Origin: an uncultured Candidatus Saccharibacteria bacterium
GTDB lineage: Bacteria; Patescibacteriota; Saccharimonadia; CAILAD01; BJGX01
Reading direction: 5' to 3'
DNA length: 43,472 nt
Assembly: GCA_964397085.1 (NCBI GenBank)
Contig: CAYNHH010000001.1
Coordinates: 1 to 43,472, forward strand
The position numbers and the translations under genes were made by a program. The notes beneath the pieces were generated by a model. That model searched no databases, was not told where the DNA came from, and worked only from the letters and a program-made list of their open reading frames with translations. Positions 6,994 through 11,863 of the stretch are shown in pieces (the stretch's first letter is position 1; every line of letters starts with the position of its first letter).

Positions 6994-7074
6994 GACTGTA
7001 AATAGCCTAACAACAAAATTACACTGACAAGATTTGGCCGTTGATCATTCTTCCTTTAAAATCCCCTGCAGAAA

Positions 7075-8124
7075 CTACTGCTTCTGGCTGGGATTTTTGA
7101 ATTTTTTTGGGCTCTGCTCAACCTCACTTGTTGACTCTACTACTTCTTCAGCCTTGTCTTCGCTTATAACTTCGCCCGTTTCGGCATCTTTGACACCTTC
7201 TTGTGTGAGTTCTACACCTTTTTTGGCAAGTTTTTCGGCAATAGTCTCGGCTTTACCTGACTCTGATTTACTTGATTCAACTTTTGTCTTTGGGTCAGTT
7301 AGCTTTGGAGTTGGGCGAAATTCACCACTTGGAGTACTACCTGCAACAGAGCTCTGATTATTACTATTGTGACTAAATAGTGCCTGGACTATCTCTTGTT
7401 GCTTAGCACCACCACTCATCATCTGAGCAGCAATAGTCAGACTCTTAGCACTCGTATTTGGCGCAGTAAACCCTTCAGTATTACTCATAATACCGGTAAG
7501 AAGTGCAGTAGCCACATGATAATCAATCATACCTTGAGCTACTGACTCAATAATACCTACGAGCATTTCACACACGCTACTTGCCTGTGGCTCAATATAA
7601 TTCACACTACCGTATTGCTCGTTGCTTCTATGCGCATCAATATTTATCAGGTGTATACCATCAAATATGGTTGGGTTCTGTTCTAAAATTGAGTCAATTT
7701 TAGCTATCTGACTCACACCAAGTACAATTACTAGATCAAATTTGTATGCGCCATAATCAAAAGTTGCATCTTGAGCAGTAAAATTACCCGAAAACGGCGA
7801 TACTACTACTTCAATATTGTCTTCATTGACTTCATACCGTAGCTTATCTACCTCTACCTTGCTCGTATCAAGGCGAATCACAAAATCACGTATACCAGAT
7901 AGGTCACGGCTAATGTGTCGAACATCAAGTACCTTATTAGACTTAGGAAATTCACCAGTCATAATAGCGCTCACTTGCTTGCCAGCGCGTTCCAAAATAA
8001 GCTCGAGGGCAACCATAGCACCGAGCTGGTCATCATTAGGCTGTTTACCGGCCACAAGTAGTATGTGGTTGGCTTGTTTTATCAGTTCTACTGCTTGTTG
8101 TTTGGGGGTCAAATCTTGTTGCAT
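7075..8124 (-). CDS. DHH-family phosphoesterase (NrnA-like oligoribonuclease/pAp phosphatase) with a ~100-aa acidic/K-rich C-terminal tail
   Basis: DHH-type motif INIDAHRSN and a DHHA1-like region with SGGAK; 349 aa. The tail is low complexity (S/E/K/T). Confidence 0.75.
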   Translation of the reverse strand: MQQDLTPKQQAVELIKQANHILLVAGKQPNDDQLGAMVALELILERAGKQVSAIMTGEFPKSNKVLDVRHISRDLSGIRDFVIRLDTSKVEVDKLRYEVNEDNIEVVVSPFSGNFTAQDATFDYGAYKFDLVIVLGVSQIAKIDSILEQNPTIFDGIHLINIDAHRSNEQYGSVNYIEPQASSVCEMLVGIIESVAQGMIDYHVATALLTGIMSNTEGFTAPNTSAKSLTIAAQMMSGGAKQQEIVQALFSHNSNNQSSVAGSTPSGEFRPTPKLTDPKTKVESSKSESGKAETIAEKLAKKGVELTQEGVKDAETGEVISEDKAEEVVESTSEVEQSPKKFKNPSQKQ

Positions 8125-8162
8125 AAATGTGATATTTTGGTTAATAATCTAATTGATTGAGT

Positions 8163-8191
8163 ATTATACCAAACAGAAGTAGTATTGTCAA
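8163..8191 (-). promoter_or_regulatory. Consensus sigma70 promoter for the DHH phosphoesterase gene
   Basis: Minus strand reads TTGACA-N17-TATAAT (tgtcaa 8186-8191, attata 8163-8168). Confidence 0.6.
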
Positions 8192-8220
8192 GCTTATGAG
8201 TGGTTATATTTCTTTTGATA

Positions 8221-8253
8221 AATAAAAAGGTTATTAGATTTCTCTAATAACCT
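8221..8253 (-). terminator. Rho-independent terminator after the PNK-like kinase gene
   Basis: 11-bp stem AGGTTATTAGA/TCTAATAACCT (8228-8253), followed on the minus strand by UUUUUAUU. Confidence 0.7.
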
Positions 8254-8270
8254 TAGGTAGTAATTGCAAA

Positions 8271-8753
8271 TCAGGTCAAAGCAAACGTAGGCACATACAG
8301 CTGGTCAAAGCCTTCGTACACGCGCGGCGGGTCAGCCAACAAAGCATGATGCATGCGCTCCATACTAGTCTGTGGCACCTTGCGATCACGTTTGGCAATC
8401 CGCTCAAGACACACCTCAAGCGGTGTCTGCATCCAGACCCCCTTGATGAAGCCATCAGGCCCCATCACAGAGCGCAAGAACTCCAGTAGCCCAACTCTAT
8501 CGAGCTTCTTGGCATTGGTGGCATCAAAAACCAACACCTTACCATCTTGCAAAGCCTTCTCTGCCCGATCGTAAGCCAGCTTCCAGACCTCCGCGTTCTT
8601 GCTCTGGTCACCAGCATTACCGGTGAGCTCAGCACGAATGTCATCAGGACAGACCACGCACTTGTTCTGTGTGCGAGCCAACTGGTACTTGATGTAGTCA
8701 GACTTGCCAGATGCAGGAATGCCAATCATCACGATTGCACGCATTACCGACAT
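8271..8753 (-). CDS. P-loop kinase resembling the kinase domain of polynucleotide 5'-kinases (AAA_33-like)
   Basis: Walker A GIPASGKS, a downstream PDDIRAEL segment (catalytic-Asp position of T4 Pnk-type kinases), DATN, and RD/R lid residues. Strong SD AAGGAG 4 nt before the ATG at 8753. GC-richer than its flanks. Confidence 0.55.
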   Translation of the reverse strand: MSVMRAIVMIGIPASGKSDYIKYQLARTQNKCVVCPDDIRAELTGNAGDQSKNAEVWKLAYDRAEKALQDGKVLVFDATNAKKLDRVGLLEFLRSVMGPDGFIKGVWMQTPLEVCLERIAKRDRKVPQTSMERMHHALLADPPRVYEGFDQLYVPTFALT

Positions 8754-8820
8754 GTTTCTCCTTGGTTGTGAGGTGCGAATGGGTTTGATCAACTTGATCA
8801 ACGACGTACTACAATAGCAT

Positions 8821-8848
8821 AACTTCTTGAAAAAGAGAAGTTTTTTTT
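8821..8848 (+). terminator. Orphan plus-orientation terminator-like hairpin
   Basis: AACTTCT/AGAAGTT stem followed by a T8 run. No plus-strand gene lies upstream, so its function is unclear. Confidence 0.35.
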
Positions 8849-8934
8849 ACTTTCCCGAACAGAATCGATTCATTCGAATAAACTCTGGTCGGGCCCCGAC
8901 CTACCGGTAAAGATAGGTCAGAGCAGTGGTGAGA

Positions 8935-9066
8935 CTAACGATGACGCCAAGTAGGCACCACCCCAGCCTCCTCGAGCTCTTCGTCAGACATACACCCGAT
9001 GAAGATCATGACAACGAACATTGCGATCAGCACAATCAGTGCTGCTACAACAAAAACGATTGCCAT
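8935..9066 (-). CDS. Possible 43-aa single-TM peptide (weak call)
   Basis: MAIVFVVAALIVLIAMFVVMIFIG then an acidic tail. The start codon lies inside the hairpin 9065-9085, and the longer track ORF overlaps ssrA. Confidence 0.2.
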   Translation of the reverse strand: MAIVFVVAALIVLIAMFVVMIFIGCMSDEELEEAGVVPTWRHR

Positions 9067-9085
9067 ATGAACCCCCAGTTCATAT
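9065..9085 (-). terminator. Hairpin about 50 nt downstream of the ssrA 3' end (possible terminator)
   Basis: ATATGAAC/GTTCATAT 8-bp stem with a 5-nt loop. The U-run is displaced by 8 nt. Confidence 0.35.
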
Positions 9086-9134
9086 ATGGATTTGGATGGT
9101 CTCCTGTCTACCCTCTCGAGTAGAAAGGAAAAAA

Positions 9135-9480
9135 GTGGAGCTGGAGGGAATCGAACCCTCGTCCAGTGCATCGTCACAATACTCGCTACAACCATTCCCA
9201 AATTTCGGCTTTATGGCCACCTTGGAGTTGGGTCTCCGCACCATCTAGTCTTTGCTAGAAGTCAGGCTGTCTTTGCAGCTCGTCATTAGTCTTTCCTAAA
9301 GTCAGTCTCTGCTCCTGTTGCCGAGCTGCAGAGTCGAGGCTCCGAATCTGGATAAATCCTTTTCAAACCGTTGTCTTTTCAGGCGGCGGTTTAGGTAATG
9401 GCCCTGTTTAACGTGTCTGAGCCATCAATACACGGGTTGCAAATACTGCTTTGGGAACACTGTCGAAACCGATCAGCCCC
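9135..9480 (-). ncRNA. ssrA: tmRNA (transfer-messenger RNA)
   Basis: The minus strand starts GGGGCUGAUCGGUUUCGAC and ends GGACGAGGGUUCGAUUCCCUCCAGCUCCAC. The 7-bp acceptor stem has the G3:U alanine identity pair. T-arm GAGGG-UUCGAUU-CCCUC; CCA is not fully encoded. The tag reading frame was not confidently assigned. Confidence 0.9.
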
Positions 9481-9487
9481 TGCTTAG

Positions 9488-9518
9488 ATTCTAGAGTCTA
9501 GATGTTAGACGCTAGCAA
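9488..9518 (-). promoter_or_regulatory. Candidate ssrA promoter
   Basis: -10 TAGAAT (attcta 9488-9493) sits 7 nt before G1 of the tmRNA. Weak -35 TTGCTA with a 19-nt spacer. Confidence 0.4.
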
Positions 9519-9548
9519 AATCCAAAAAGGGACCAACCAAGTTCCTAC

Positions 9549-9573
9549 AAAAAAATCCAAATTTATATTTGGA
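9549..9573 (-). terminator. Canonical rho-independent terminator on the minus strand, just upstream of the ssrA promoter
   Basis: Stem TCCAAAT(9556-9562)/ATTTGGA(9567-9573) with a 4-nt loop, followed on the minus strand by U7 (A-run 9549-9555). Confidence 0.7.
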
Positions 9574-10039
9574 TACATACACTGTTTAAAGTACTCTGAG
9601 CTTTTTTAGAAGATTTTTGATTTAGTCTCAGCATGAATTCTCAATAAAATTAAGAACTCGTGTTGAGACCCTCCGAGACCCCAACGAATTGGTGCCTCGA
9701 AAGGCAATGAGTGTTTGCTTGATGGTTTACTGGCTTACGCCACCAAGCCTTGTTTTAGTTGTAAGCAAGGTACAGGAGTACTCCACTCCAAAACTCTCGG
9801 ACGACACATACACGCTGTTCACACATCCTAAGATGTGGCCAGGCCGCCACTATTTGCAATCACACCAAGCGGCGCTCTATCTTGACCTTACTCAAGAGAG
9901 CGGCCAGCAAGGTGTGATTGTCGAGCTTAGTGATCCCATTGTAGGAAGCTTGGCGTTTCACGGCCGAGCTCACAGGGGAAGGTATCACTTATTTCACCGC
10001 TAGGGTCCCCCAATGCGCATTGTATACTCACCCTCTCGG

Positions 10040-10078
10040 GTCACCTGTTGATGTCACCTTGTGGTGTCACCCCGTTCG
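10040..10078. repeat. Three tandem 13-nt units each starting GTCACC
   Basis: GTCACCTGTTGAT / GTCACCTTGTGGT / GTCACCCCGTTCGAT, with starts at 10040, 10053 and 10066. Confidence 0.75.
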
Positions 10079-10625
10079 ATGTATGGGTTTGTACTCCCAT
10101 CAAGCGCGCTACTCTGATTTCTCCCTACCCCCGCACCAGCATTATTAGGTGCAGCACTTATTTCGCCCGACCTAAGCCGTTTCCATAAGTGTCTGGTGTG
10201 CTCACCAGAAGGTCTTTCGCGGTTGCGATTTCGTTACAGTATGCCTGCGTGCATCGGCCCGAGCGTATCGGGTAGCGCGTACGGCTTACAGTCCCCCTGT
10301 AACAAGGTTCCTCGTTTCGGTCGTGCCTACTCCTGAAGAAACCTTTCTAACTTGTCTGAAAGCCGTAGCTTTCGAATAAAAACCAGAGATAATATCGACT
10401 TTAAGAAATGAAGAGATTGTATAAAATATGTGTACTCTATTATTTCAAAGGAAAATGTCTAGTCTTTATTCGAAAGCCAAAGGCTTTATATATAAGGTTC
10501 AAATGATGTGCCTGTGCACAACTGCCCGCCCACATGTATAGCTATTCACCAATCTGCCCAAAAATATTTAAATATGTGGCACTGGTAATTTGCTAGTTGC
10601 GAGCAAGGCAACTGTGTACAGATTT

Positions 10626-10677
10626 CAAGTTTCGCTCTTTCAGAGCTCATCAGTACTGGTAGTAACCAGTAGACTTG
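10626..10677 (-). ncRNA. Hammerhead self-cleaving ribozyme, type III topology
   Basis: Minus strand reads 5'-CAAGUC^UACUGGU-UACU-ACCAGUA-CUGAUGA-GCUC-UGAAA-GAGC-GAAA-CUUG-3'. All invariant core nucleotides are present. Stem I is 7 bp, stem II 4 bp (G10.1:C11.1) and stem III 5 bp, with a GUC cleavage triplet (cut after C10672). Confidence 0.85.
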
Positions 10678-10927
10678 CACCCCGGGATTACTCCCAGGGC
10701 TTACTAACTTCCTCGCAATGAGGCACAACACCAAGTTAGTCGGTGTGCTCTATTTGGTAATCGCCGAGCTGGCGGGTGGCGGTATTGTCACGACTCCTAG
10801 AAGCCGGCTAATTTACGTCTTGGTGCTAGACGTCAGAATTCTGTTGCTAGGCTCTGATAGGCTTTTGAAAGCCTGCCCCTGTATTGATGCAGCGCGGGCT
10901 ACTAACGGGCCAATACACCCGGAATTT

Positions 10928-11161
10928 TTACCTGTTCACCAGGGCCATCTCGCGGAAGATCCGCTGGTTGGCTTCTGCGAGCCTTTCACTCGCCTCAGAC
11001 TCCCTTTGCTCGAGCGACTTGAACGGGTCGATCCCGTTCTCCACGCACCAGCAGAAGTCCTCGTAGTCCATCTCTTCGACGGGCACAAGAGCGGACATGA
11101 CATGGGGCATTTCATTGGTGATCATACCAAACATACTTAATACACTCAGTAAGACCACCAA
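10928..11161 (-). CDS. Hypothetical small acidic protein (start uncertain; several in-frame ATGs)
   Basis: 77-aa GC-rich ORF directly downstream of promoter 11226-11254. The opposite-strand 140-aa ORF is R/L/P/H-rich and looks like a shadow. Confidence 0.45.
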   Translation of the reverse strand: MVVLLSVLSMFGMITNEMPHVMSALVPVEEMDYEDFCWCVENGIDPFKSLEQRESEASERLAEANQRIFREMALVNR

Positions 11162-11225
11162 ATATGCCCTGCTCTTTTATAACGTACAAATGCTCTTTGT
11201 TAGAACAACTCAAGCATCGAAAAGT

Positions 11226-11254
11226 AGTATAGCAAACTTTAAATAAAATGTCAA
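11226..11254 (-). promoter_or_regulatory. Consensus sigma70 promoter with extended -10
   Basis: Minus strand reads TTGACA-ttttatttaaagtttgc-TATACT (17-nt spacer, TGc extended -10). Confidence 0.6.
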
Positions 11255-11363
11255 TACTTTTATACACTTTATTTACAATTATGTACACTAACAGATATAA
11301 AATAGGAATATTTTATGTCATACTTTATAAATATATCGAGATAATACAGCAATGTATAAAAAT

Positions 11364-11387
11364 ACCCCCTTCATGACAAAAGGGGGT
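11364..11387 (-). terminator. Rho-independent terminator overlapping the stop codon of 11371..11709
   Basis: ACCCCCTT/AAGGGGGT 8-bp stem, followed on the minus strand by AUUUUUAU. Confidence 0.7.
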
Positions 11388-11709
11388 TGAAATACTTAGC
11401 AAACAATTCTTGAGGCAAGTACTGCTCAATGCAAAGCATGCAGGTGAACAGATCTTGAATCGAATCCTTGTAGTACTGCTTGGTACGTACATTTTCTTGC
11501 CATAGCTGTCTTGCTATACGAACATGCTCAACGAGTCCACTCATAAATGCAAAGACAACATCTTCATTTGATAGGTCGAGATTAAGACGATCTATCTCAT
11601 CCTTCACAGGCTTACGGTAGCGATCTACCATATGCAATGGATTTGCGATAAGACCATCTCGTCTGGTTTGCTCAAGAAAATCAGTGATCATGCACCATTG
11701 TGGCTCCAT
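11371..11709 (-). CDS. Hypothetical protein (112 aa from ATG 11709)
   Basis: The track ORF extends to 11847, but its N-terminal part covers the terminator hairpin 11805-11836. The internal Met (MEPQW...) was therefore taken as the start. Confidence 0.5.
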   Translation of the reverse strand: MEPQWCMITDFLEQTRRDGLIANPLHMVDRYRKPVKDEIDRLNLDLSNEDVVFAFMSGLVEHVRIARQLWQENVRTKQYYKDSIQDLFTCMLCIEQYLPQELFAKYFNPLLS

Positions 11710-11804
11710 ATCAGCTCTTTCTGGTAGGTGCGGATAAATCTGGCATAGTATATCTGGAAATGCACAATTAGTCAAGGTTAAGAGTATTGCGCATAATAGA
11801 AATA

Positions 11805-11836
11805 CCCCGGTTCCGCTCGTGAGAGCAGAACCGGGG
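11805..11836 (-). terminator. GC-rich hairpin terminator after 11864..12142
   Basis: CCCCGGTTC/GAACCGGGG 9-bp stem plus an inner GCTC-GTGA-GAGC, followed by U-rich GUAUUUCUAUU on the minus strand. Confidence 0.6.
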
Positions 11837-11863
11837 CAGACAAACATTACTCATTCCTGAGAA

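Follow-up and report, generated by a model that had tools for sequence, protein, structure and literature searches.

A conserved, modular non-coding RNA downstream of a hammerhead ribozyme motif in Candidatus Saccharibacteria

To our knowledge, large intricate bacterial RNAs are rare, and each of them (RNase P, OLE, GOLLD, ROOL, HEARO/omega RNA) does, or is suspected of doing, sophisticated biochemistry. Members of the Saccharibacteria clade are ultra-small epibiotic bacteria that belong to the candidate phyla radiation (CPR), with genomes of about 1 Mb. The present study concerns a non-coding region in a contig of an uncultured Candidatus Saccharibacteria bacterium (GenBank assembly GCA_964397085.1, contig CAYNHH010000001.1). 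The whole stretch of 43,472 nucleotides is referred to as the window, and other loci compared with it carry handles such as L001 or L082. A sequence-only reading had marked positions 9650-10340 as a GC-rich, hairpin-dense core and had suggested a large structured RNA that fits none of the known classes. This proposal is supported by homologues, by covariation, and by the lack of an Rfam match to the RNA body. The region is the body of a conserved, heavily folded non-coding RNA encoded on the minus strand. The RNA follows a hammerhead ribozyme motif, and we somewhat favor the reading that it is a stable structured RNA, released by the ribozyme and acting in trans, and not the leader of the next gene.

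The RNA shares several properties with the large ornate RNAs OLE, GOLLD, ROOL, HEARO, and raiA. The length is hundreds of nucleotides to about 1 kb, and many covarying helices, invariant unpaired stretches, pseudoknots, and GNRA loops are present. The distribution is narrow and patchy, and a tRNA-like neighbor is found in several loci, here a transfer-messenger RNA (tmRNA) gene and, in L073, tRNA genes. The window RNA differs from these classes by its 5' hammerhead, its modular body, its deletion variants, and its repeated punctuating hairpins. GOLLD and ROOL are frequent in phages and prophages, whereas the window RNA was found in Saccharibacteria chromosomes. No match to it was found by blastn against 50,697 phage records and 72,556 plasmids, or by three specific motif patterns in the viral contigs of IMG/VR.

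All 4227 families of Rfam 15 were searched with cmscan, at E <= 10 for window positions 9400-11200 and at E <= 5 for the homologous loci L005 and L011. In the window and the two homologues, only the hammerhead and the tmRNA were matched. No covariance model of GOLLD, ROOL, OLE, HEARO, raiA, RNase P, or introns matched the window RNA, even at E <= 10. Since no Rfam 15 family was matched in three homologues, the RNA body belongs to no catalogued family and is, judged from these model searches, a new RNA family.

Several single candidates were also tried and rejected. RNase P RNA, marked by P4 and the conserved regions CR-I to CR-V, gave no RNaseP_bact_a/b match at E <= 10, and the sole likeness was a GGGUGAAAC loop seen by eye. 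For a group I or group II intron, there was no Rfam intron match, including domain V/VI and D1-D4 of group II, and no reverse transcriptase gene in any locus examined. The idea that Drum RNAs follow hammerheads was not supported by PMC5737381. TIGR guide-RNA arrays, which occur in Patescibacteria and in phages, consist of tandem units of about 36 nt (two repeats of 8-12 nt and two spacers of about 9 nt) in 5-15 copies, together with a Nop-domain Tas gene (PMC12045711). The window locus is likewise a non-coding, structured, repeat-punctuated CPR locus that ends in a terminator; unlike the short variable spacers of TIGR arrays, its modules are long and conserved. Only a 13-nt repeat of 2.5 copies was reported by Tandem Repeats Finder, no Nop-domain protein is encoded nearby, and a TIGR array was rejected. 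In the full-text literature, of which not all journals were covered, no hammerhead or large RNA was described in Saccharibacteria, CPR, or Patescibacteria.

Conservation, non-coding character and sense strand

The RNA is surrounded by genes for TruB, a DHH-family (NrnA-like) protein, a small P-loop kinase, a TrmB-like regulator, rpsO, and pnp. Species-representative genomes were searched with the DHH protein, and 11 loci with a protein identity of 68-84% were obtained, mostly titled Candidatus Saccharibacteria. When window positions 9481-10940 were used in nhmmer and blastn, homologous non-coding DNA was found in 8 of the 11 loci, with blocks of 75-87% nucleotide identity. The nhmmer E values were 1e-11 to 5e-28 for L004-L008, L010, and L011, and weaker for L012 (2e-9). 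In these eight loci, the homologous DNA always lies between the TrmB-like and DHH genes, on the strand that corresponds to the minus strand of the window. The contigs of further DHH homologues added L062, L066/67, L069-71, L076, and L078, as well as the more distant L073 and L082. At least 13 Saccharibacteria assemblies carry homologous DNA at this syntenic position (TrmB ... DHH-truB-rpsO-pnp). The alignments comprised about 13 loci in four or five sub-clades. Large domain indels made a global MAFFT alignment of the full RNA unreliable, and it was dropped in favor of block-wise alignments and one covariance model. In the relatives, the hammerhead core and block F are 621 to 1,077 nt apart.

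Apart from a 104-aa plus-strand open reading frame (ORF; 9689-10003), the region contains no ORF of 60 aa or longer. A counterpart of this ORF was found only in the near-identical contig L001. When the stop-to-stop segments of the six frames were compared, weak translated matches appeared only at the nucleotide-conserved blocks, in several frames and on both strands simultaneously. Mismatches counted modulo 3 were flat in two close pairs of sequences (73/81/72 and 32/41/29), and the indels were mostly of 1-2 nt, with 16/17 and 9/11 of them not multiples of three. A conserved frame, 3-nt periodicity, or in-frame indels, which would mark a protein-coding gene or a pseudogene, were not found in the region, nor was any remnant of a decayed protein gene.

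The GC content is 52.5% for 9650-10340 and 44.0% across the whole window; the sequence-only reading had put the backbone at 42-43%. The minimum free energy of 9650-10380 is -250 kcal/mol for the plus strand (shuffles -217 +/- 7, z -4.5) and -267 kcal/mol for the minus strand (shuffles -236 +/- 6, z -5.0), with only 20 dinucleotide shuffles. All the helices named by the sequence-only reading were located, some of them shifted by 1-2 nt. These include the helices CAATCACACC at 9857 with GGTGTGATTG at 9911, CGCTCT at 9873 with AGAGCG at 9897, GCACC at 10133 with GGTGC at 10148, and CCCGA at 10258 with TCGGG at 10268. The hairpins CTGGTG-TGCT-CACCAG at 10193 and TTACAG-TCCCC-CTGTAA at 10286 were also confirmed. 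The hairpin GAAAGC-CGTA-GCTTTC exists (10358-10373) and lies slightly beyond the 9650-10340 range to which it had been assigned.

The helices of the D domain, one of the domains listed below, contain 19 G-U against 4 A-C combinations when read as the minus strand. Because G-U outnumbers A-C, the minus strand is the sense strand, and the orientations of the hammerhead and of the terminator agree with this.

The structured range 9650-10340 is only a part of the conserved unit, which runs from about 10739 to about 9549 in the minus sense. The unit is longer than had been supposed because the hammerhead ribozyme and the AU-rich 5' domain had been overlooked. We redraw it as about 10739 to 9549 on the minus strand, plus the upstream promoter and a small ORF. 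The features are as follows.

11226 to 11254, minus strand: sigma-70-type promoter-like site (predicted function), TTGACA-17-TATACT with an upstream TG, 11/12 matches
10928 to 11161, minus strand: 77-aa ORF of uncertain coding status between promoter and hammerhead; a gene is called here on L001
10704 to 10739, minus strand: P-1 nested hairpin upstream of the ribozyme, CTAACTT ... AAGTTAG around CCTC ... GAGG
10680 to 10699, minus strand: P0 GC-rich hairpin, abutting hammerhead stem III
10624 to 10679, minus strand: type III hammerhead ribozyme (Rfam RF00008), predicted cut after GUC at 10672/10671
9549 to 10671, minus strand: predicted mature RNA of about 1,120 nt from the hammerhead cut to the terminator, assembled from parts, both ends predicted
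10530 to 10620, minus strand: B domain, a long irregular stem whose tip is the B hairpin (10549-10585, CCAGUGC / GCAGAUUGG)
10368 to 10477, minus strand: AT-rich long hairpin, GCUUUCGAAUAAA ... UUUAUUCGAAAGC
10358 to 10373, minus strand: alternative hairpin GAAAGC-UACG-GCUUUC, which overlaps the AT-rich hairpin; the two pairings are mutually exclusive, and this one is conserved
10250 to 10345, minus strand: C block, with helix AAGGUU/AACCUU, hairpin UUACAG-GGGGA-CUGUAA, and CCGA-YACGN-UCGG followed by near-invariant RCCGAUGCA
10155 to 10191, minus strand: J motif, AAACGG-[hairpin]-GUCGGGYGA inside the covarying helix CACUUAU/AUAAGUG
9922 to 10041, minus strand: D domain of about 130 nt, with GNRA hairpin ACCC-GAGA-GGGU, A-rich linker, closing helix GAGU/GCUC, D1, D2, and a last hairpin
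9857 to 9920, minus strand: E hairpin, the 64-nt nested hairpin of the sequence-only reading, CGCUC-UC(N)n-loop-(N')nGA-UN-GAGCG with a 2-nt bulge
9662 to 9704, minus strand: F block, with UUCG-type hairpin CCU-UUCG-AGG and conserved GUUGGG-N5-GGAGGGUCUCAAC
9549 to 9574, minus strand: weak intrinsic terminator, AUCCAAA-UAUAAA-UUUGGAU followed by seven U, where the RNA is predicted to end
9133 to 9480, minus strand: tmRNA gene, a separate unit (Rfam RF00023, 90.3 bits against a gathering score of 47, model positions 1-374, full length)

The hammerhead ribozyme and the domains that follow it

The hammerhead was scored by RF00008 with 40.3 bits in the window (E 8e-7 in a scan of 1801 bases and 2e-5 in the whole window). 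Among the relatives, L005 scored 29.8 and L011 33.5 bits, and E values in the short scans ranged overall from 8e-7 to 8e-4. The core in the window reads ...AAGUC/UACUGG ... CUGAUGAG ... CGAAAC..., with the predicted cut between C and U. The catalytic core that defines a hammerhead (C3-A9 CUGAUGA, G12-A14 GAA, the A15.1-U16.1 pair, and an NUH cleavage triplet) is kept in 17/17 hammerhead copies, and the triplet is GUC, UUC, or AUC. In an alignment of 14 sequences, 90.1% of the cells pair, and 13/16 stem pairs are changed on both sides. Covariation is scored at 0.63, compared with 0.26 for shuffles, none of 500 shuffles reaches the observed value, and slid controls pair at no more than 48%. By sequence and pairing, the element is a hammerhead that fits the type III structural definition and falls short of the Rfam score threshold. 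It shares with RF00008 the CUGAUGA/GAAA core, the GUC (or UUC) triplet, and three covarying stems open at stem III. Unlike in RF00008, inserts as long as about 27 nt are present in stem II of some relatives, a GC-rich hairpin always precedes the ribozyme, and an AU-loop hairpin always follows it.

The GC-rich hairpin is P0, which forms a perfect stem of 8-12 bp in every homologue with a sequence that differs each time, for example CCCCGACT/AGTCGGGG, CCTCGTCTGA/TCAGACGAGG, CCCCGCTGCGC/GCGCAGCGGGG, and CCAAGAAGC/GCTTCTTGG. Similarly, the outer stem of P-1 varies yet stays complementary (GGTAGT/ACTACC, GGTAGA/TCTACC, CTTGG/CCAAG, GCACT/AGTGC, and AGAGAT/ATCTCT). Further upstream, an AT-rich promoter region is weakly conserved about 450-600 nt from the hammerhead in L062, L007, L011, and L076, and the promoter-like site 11254-11226 is likely the start of the transcription unit. 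The small ORF at this position is unrelated between clades, and the 77-aa ORF (10928-11161) has no Pfam match.

More well-formed type III hammerheads were observed at L005:5256 and L076:524 (beside rpsT), at L062:5326 and L063:2957 (upstream of the kinase gene), and at L082:7539. Hammerheads thus seem, from their repeated placement, to be recurrent intergenic elements in these genomes, perhaps for processing.

The domains downstream of the ribozyme were compared one by one. The AU-rich loop of the B hairpin, AUAUUUAAAUA, is conserved. The pair that closes the hairpin is C-G, U-A, A-U, G-U, or G-C among the relatives, and in L008 GC/GC is replaced by GU/AC. The helix that encloses the B hairpin covaries as well (UCUGUGG/CCACAGA against GUCUGCG/CGCAGAC). 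The AT-rich long hairpin has covarying arms in the L005-type loci, L007, and L008, and is absent in L004, L010, and L011. The C block is the most conserved stretch of the RNA, with 80-87% nucleotide identity to L011, L004, and L010, in which the DHH protein identity is 68-71%. A C-block pattern gave 43 matches in viral contigs, which were all rejected as chance matches (DNA of 48-70% GC without nhmmer homology). A longer C-block pattern gave 3 matches in metagenomes, all in DNA of 68-73% GC and 2 of them in helicase-like coding sequence as judged by eye, and it was set aside as too unspecific. The helix that encloses the J motif is replaced by CACUGCUC/GAGUGGUG in L005, by CUUCAUCU/GGAUGAAG in L008, and by CAGCU/AGCUG in L076.

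The D domain, the E hairpin, and the hammerhead all covary. In the D domain, the D1 helix GGGGA/UCCCC is crossed by the D2 helix GUGAUACC/GGGAUCAC, which makes a pseudoknot. A hairpin of this domain has a UGAAA loop and a tandem purine internal loop. In the MAFFT alignment of 10 sequences, 90.4% of the cells pair, 11/23 pairs are changed on both sides, and 0/500 shuffles reach this value; the slid controls are paired at no more than 59%. The model-fitted alignment, which is biased toward the structure, gives 92% pairing and 16/23 pairs changed on both sides, again with 0/500 shuffles. Four helices of the domain (Dg, D0, D1, and Dh) were independently recovered by RNAalifold. The covariance model of the domain, R1, scored 116 bits on window 9918-10047 of the minus strand and matched only at the expected places, plus one new weak match in L073.

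The palindrome CAATGCGCATTG had been noted at 10011 and is present there. A role as dimerization site was considered and rejected, as it forms one strand of a long-range intramolecular helix when traced by eye. In relatives the equivalent CGGAUC pairs with an upstream GAUCCG, and in the window GCGCUUG pairs with CAA(U)GCGC, both also seen by eye.

A tandem repeat of GGUGAC plus 7 nt (period 13) lies at 10040-10090 in the minus sense, just 5' of the GNRA hairpin of the D domain. It has 2.5 copies by Tandem Repeats Finder and up to 4 by eye, and it occurs in the window and L001 only. By its sequence, it looks like a local duplication of the 5' arm of the GNRA hairpin.

The E hairpin has a conserved core. 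In its alignment, 90.1% of the cells pair, and changes on both sides were counted in the distal stem (5 pairs / 21 cells). Its CGC/AGC start and 2-nt 3' bulge loosely resemble domain V of group II introns. The E hairpin is not domain V, because it is repeated and has no constant GNRA loop. The middle part between the E hairpin and the F block is diverged. In the F block, GGAGGGUCUCAAC is identical in the window, L001, L005, L008, L011, and L076. The terminator 9574-9549 is skipped by the terminator scan because it has too few G-C pairs. A UCCAAA ... UUUGGA helix with a U-run is likewise placed in L004, L010, L011, and L012, which makes five loci with the window.

Release of the RNA and rival explanations

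The favored reading can be laid out as a series of steps. Transcription would start at the promoter near 11254 and run through the clade-variable short ORF and then P-1 and P0. The type III hammerhead would cut itself co-transcriptionally at 10672/10671. The upstream fragment would then end in the GC-rich P0 hairpin with a 2',3'-cyclic phosphate, and the downstream RNA of about 1.1 kb would be released with its 5'-OH nucleotide already paired in hammerhead stem I. This RNA would fold as a chain of independent domains (B, C, J, the pseudoknotted D, E, and F) and would end at the weak terminator 9574-9549, before the tmRNA promoter. With both new ends buried in structure, the product would be stable and shielded from exonucleases. 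The RNA or its modules may then act in trans, as a protein scaffold, a binder, or a self-organizing or catalytic RNA, in the manner of OLE, ROOL, and GOLLD. The independence of the unit is supported by the conserved terminator before the tmRNA gene and by the occurrence of the RNA in loci without a detected tmRNA.

Cleavage by the glmS ribozyme leaves a 5'-OH that governs decay by RNase J1. Self-cleavage in the window would likewise give a downstream 5'-OH and an upstream cyclic phosphate, and enzymes that act on RNA ends are encoded nearby. Unlike in glmS, the 5'-OH nucleotide here would be paired in stem I, and no metabolite sensing is implied. Stabilization appears likelier than destabilization, since the 5'-OH would be paired in stem I and the downstream product is a conserved structured RNA.

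Several observations weigh against a released RNA that works as one molecule in trans. The RNA is absent at this locus in the close relatives L003, L009, L059-61, L065, and L074/75. The hammerhead scores in the window, L005, and L011 are below the RF00008 gathering score of 48.5, and stem III has only 3 bp in several relatives unless a bulge is permitted. No long-range helix that joins the 5' and 3' domains has been demonstrated, and losses of J+D, of J+D+E, or of the middle part with F argue against one indivisible fold. The hammerhead and B hairpin also occur without the body, upstream of the tmRNA in L082 and upstream of an ORF in L062, and therefore the ribozyme may serve the upstream gene rather than the RNA. 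Finally, the clade with a 65-aa ORF has no clear terminator after the RNA, which fits a leader role.

The last two points lead to the best-surviving alternative, which we consider unlikely: a processing or insulation cassette that acts in cis. In this explanation, the hammerhead, the P0 and B hairpins, and the body would jointly make up a long structured untranslated region, 3' or 5', that determines how stable the upstream small-ORF mRNA is and where its 3' end lies. Control of the gene downstream, either the 65-aa ORF in one clade or the tmRNA in the other, might be added to this, and the E-type hairpins would be binding sites or RNase III sites. The occurrence of the hammerhead and B hairpin without the body in L082 (before the tmRNA) and L062 (before a 113-aa ORF) speaks for it, and so do the extra hammerheads, which L062 and L063 carry just upstream of the kinase gene and which L005 and L076 carry beside rpsT. 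In L082, the hammerhead at 7539 with its B-like AU-loop hairpin is located about 170 nt upstream of the tmRNA. The RNA of L005, L006, L008, and L076 runs, without an obvious terminator, into an E-type hairpin, GGAGGTGA, and the ORF.

The gene that follows the RNA was compared among the loci. Eight loci (the window, L001, L004, L007, L008, L010, L011, and L012) have the tmRNA gene after the RNA, and no tmRNA was detected within the examined loci L005, L006, L062, L066, L069, L076, and L078. In L005, L006, L008, L066, L069-71, L076, and L078, the RNA is succeeded by a conserved ORF of about 65 aa that has a Shine-Dalgarno site; L008 also has the tmRNA. This follower was not identified in L062 and L007. 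The ORF is located at L006:6065-6262, L076:5850-6050, L066:7658-7855, L078:7656-7853, L005:9053-9247, and L008:7956-8141, and it is preceded by an E-type hairpin and the GGAGGTGA Shine-Dalgarno site. Its product reads MDETN ... EICLEFF.GHESGH.CAE ... KVSAGYL with an HExxH-like motif and has no Pfam or NCBIfam match.

The clade-dependent downstream gene argues against a cassette in cis, as the gene varies while the RNA is conserved. In the clade of the window, the conserved terminator stands between the RNA and the tmRNA. Covarying, pseudoknotted structure of about 1 kb also far exceeds the needs of known leaders and insulators. In addition, the J-D module of L073 stands alone with its own terminator. 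This diverged J-D homologue (L073:1085-1530, about 430 nt) is flanked by two tRNA genes on one side and the DHH gene on the other. A strong intrinsic terminator is present and a hammerhead is absent, and the homologue can be aligned from one end to the other with the J-D part of the window RNA. Its D1 helix is CUUUGG/CCAAAG in place of GGGG(A)/(U)CCCC, which is a compensatory change.

The variation between loci bears on a further alternative, a polycistronic array, to which we give a still smaller chance. After the hammerhead cut, small RNAs (B, C, J-D, and middle-F) would be cut apart at the E-type hairpins. Two to three E-type hairpins are present per locus in the L005/L006/L069 clade, and they bracket modules, as such an array would have it. 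Whole modules are lost in three loci: L078 is without J, D, and E, L066 is without the middle part and F, and L011 passes directly from C to E. The deletion or recombination junctions of these whole-block losses fall at E-type hairpins. In L062, an ORF lies between the 5' domain and a D domain. In both L062 and L063, the D domain is separate from C, E, and F; together with the stand-alone J-D gene of L073, this also speaks for separate small RNAs. A similar break was found between two near-identical contigs. Identity between the window and L001 is 99.3% in 9857-11840 and 93% in 7000-9480, whereas window 9481-9856 and L001:1984-2383 cannot be aligned outside block F. The break coincides exactly with the 3' edge of the E hairpin, and the unalignable stretch takes in the 3' third of the RNA as well as the promoter region of the tmRNA gene. 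This suggests, on the basis of the two contigs, that a module was exchanged by recombination between the strains.

An array is opposed by the order of the modules, which is fixed wherever they are present. Recombination alone predicts deletions at direct repeats. The clade of the window has one E hairpin only, and cleavage at E is an assumption. The comparisons nevertheless indicate that the unit is built of separable parts, among which the hammerhead and B hairpin are, as far as the loci reveal, more widespread than the body.

That the RNA is left over from a mobile or defense element, or is its RNA component, at a variable chromosomal site (for example a degenerate intron, the RNA of a retroelement, or an array of guide RNAs) is very improbable. 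This reading could draw on the patchy presence at one locus, the mosaic of the window and L001, the flanking small ORFs without assigned function that differ between clades, and the loose likeness of the E hairpin to domain V. No reverse transcriptase, integrase, nuclease, or Nop-domain gene is found nearby, and the Rfam group I and II intron models are empty at E <= 10. The searches of phages, plasmids, and viral contigs were also without a match. The E hairpin is repeated and lacks the constant GNRA loop of domain V, and the 36-nt tandem periodicity that TIGR arrays require (PMC12045711) is missing.

A decayed protein gene or chance GC-rich hairpins, for which the single 104-aa plus-strand ORF and the tendency of high GC alone to favor predicted hairpins could be cited, can be dismissed in practice, given that the ORF lacks conservation, substitutions are evenly spread modulo 3 with indels mostly off-frame, translated similarity arises in every frame and on both strands at the same blocks, and folding z-scores of -4.5 and -5.0 are joined by numerous compensatory changes.

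Neighboring genes and meaning for Saccharibacteria

The neighboring gene that had been taken for a tRNA-like gene is the tmRNA gene on the minus strand. A TAGAAT -10-like sequence lies upstream of it at about 9482-9487. ARAGORN reported no tRNA or tmRNA in the whole 43-kb window. The 176-aa P-loop kinase (8271-8801, minus strand) adjoins the tmRNA gene. Among the NCBIfam models, it is closest to the one for the 5'-OH polynucleotide kinase domain of bacterial Pnkp (TIGR04075, E 1.7e-14, far under the full-length cut-off), and it also matches Pfam AAA_33. In L062 and L063, a hammerhead stands directly upstream of the kinase orthologue. RNA-end enzymes are encoded around the locus, namely PNPase, RNase J, a DHH nanoRNase-like protein, and the Pnkp-like kinase. 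The 5'-OH ends made by the ribozyme may be linked to the 5'-OH kinase, a link suggested by association only.

Some further features were observed. The 65-aa ORF of the sister clade has no significant homologue in the window. A plus-strand ORF at 10718-11140 has a C-terminal PAEVLVVHLFDGHKSGH that resembles PAEICLEFFWMGHESGH of the 65-aa ORF. This likeness is probably due to chance, since the best tblastn E value was 0.41 in a database of about 1 Mb and the match is on the wrong, opposite strand. The minus strand also has strong terminator-like hairpins at 11803-11838 and 11364-11387, and one of the two has a 16-bp stem. Because the 16-bp hairpin is inside the N-terminal part of a 158-aa ORF (11371-11847), the true start of this ORF is probably further downstream. 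A weak Rfam match to anti-hemB at 11356-11442 overlaps the second hairpin and is probably merely that terminator.

We see about even chances that the locus represents a new class of RNAs of about 0.65-1.1 kb in the Saccharibacteria clade. The members of this class would have a 5' end made by a hammerhead, exchangeable modules with a pseudoknotted domain of about 130 nt, punctuation by E-type hairpins, and a biochemical task of their own. The conserved structure of about 1.1 kb amounts to about 0.1% of a very small, streamlined CPR genome. The locus would be a natural example of a hammerhead that is repeatedly used as an intergenic device for making RNA ends in bacteria. The natural deletion variants mark the limits of the domains, and the compact D domain is suited to structural and ligand-binding study. 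If the class is real, the E-type hairpins would be points of recombination or processing, and the RNA or its J-D part would carry out catalysis, ligand or protein binding, or self-assembly. Its task might then be tied to the RNA-end chemistry that surrounds it, with the Pnkp-like kinase, RNase J, PNPase, the nanoRNase-like protein, and tmRNA.

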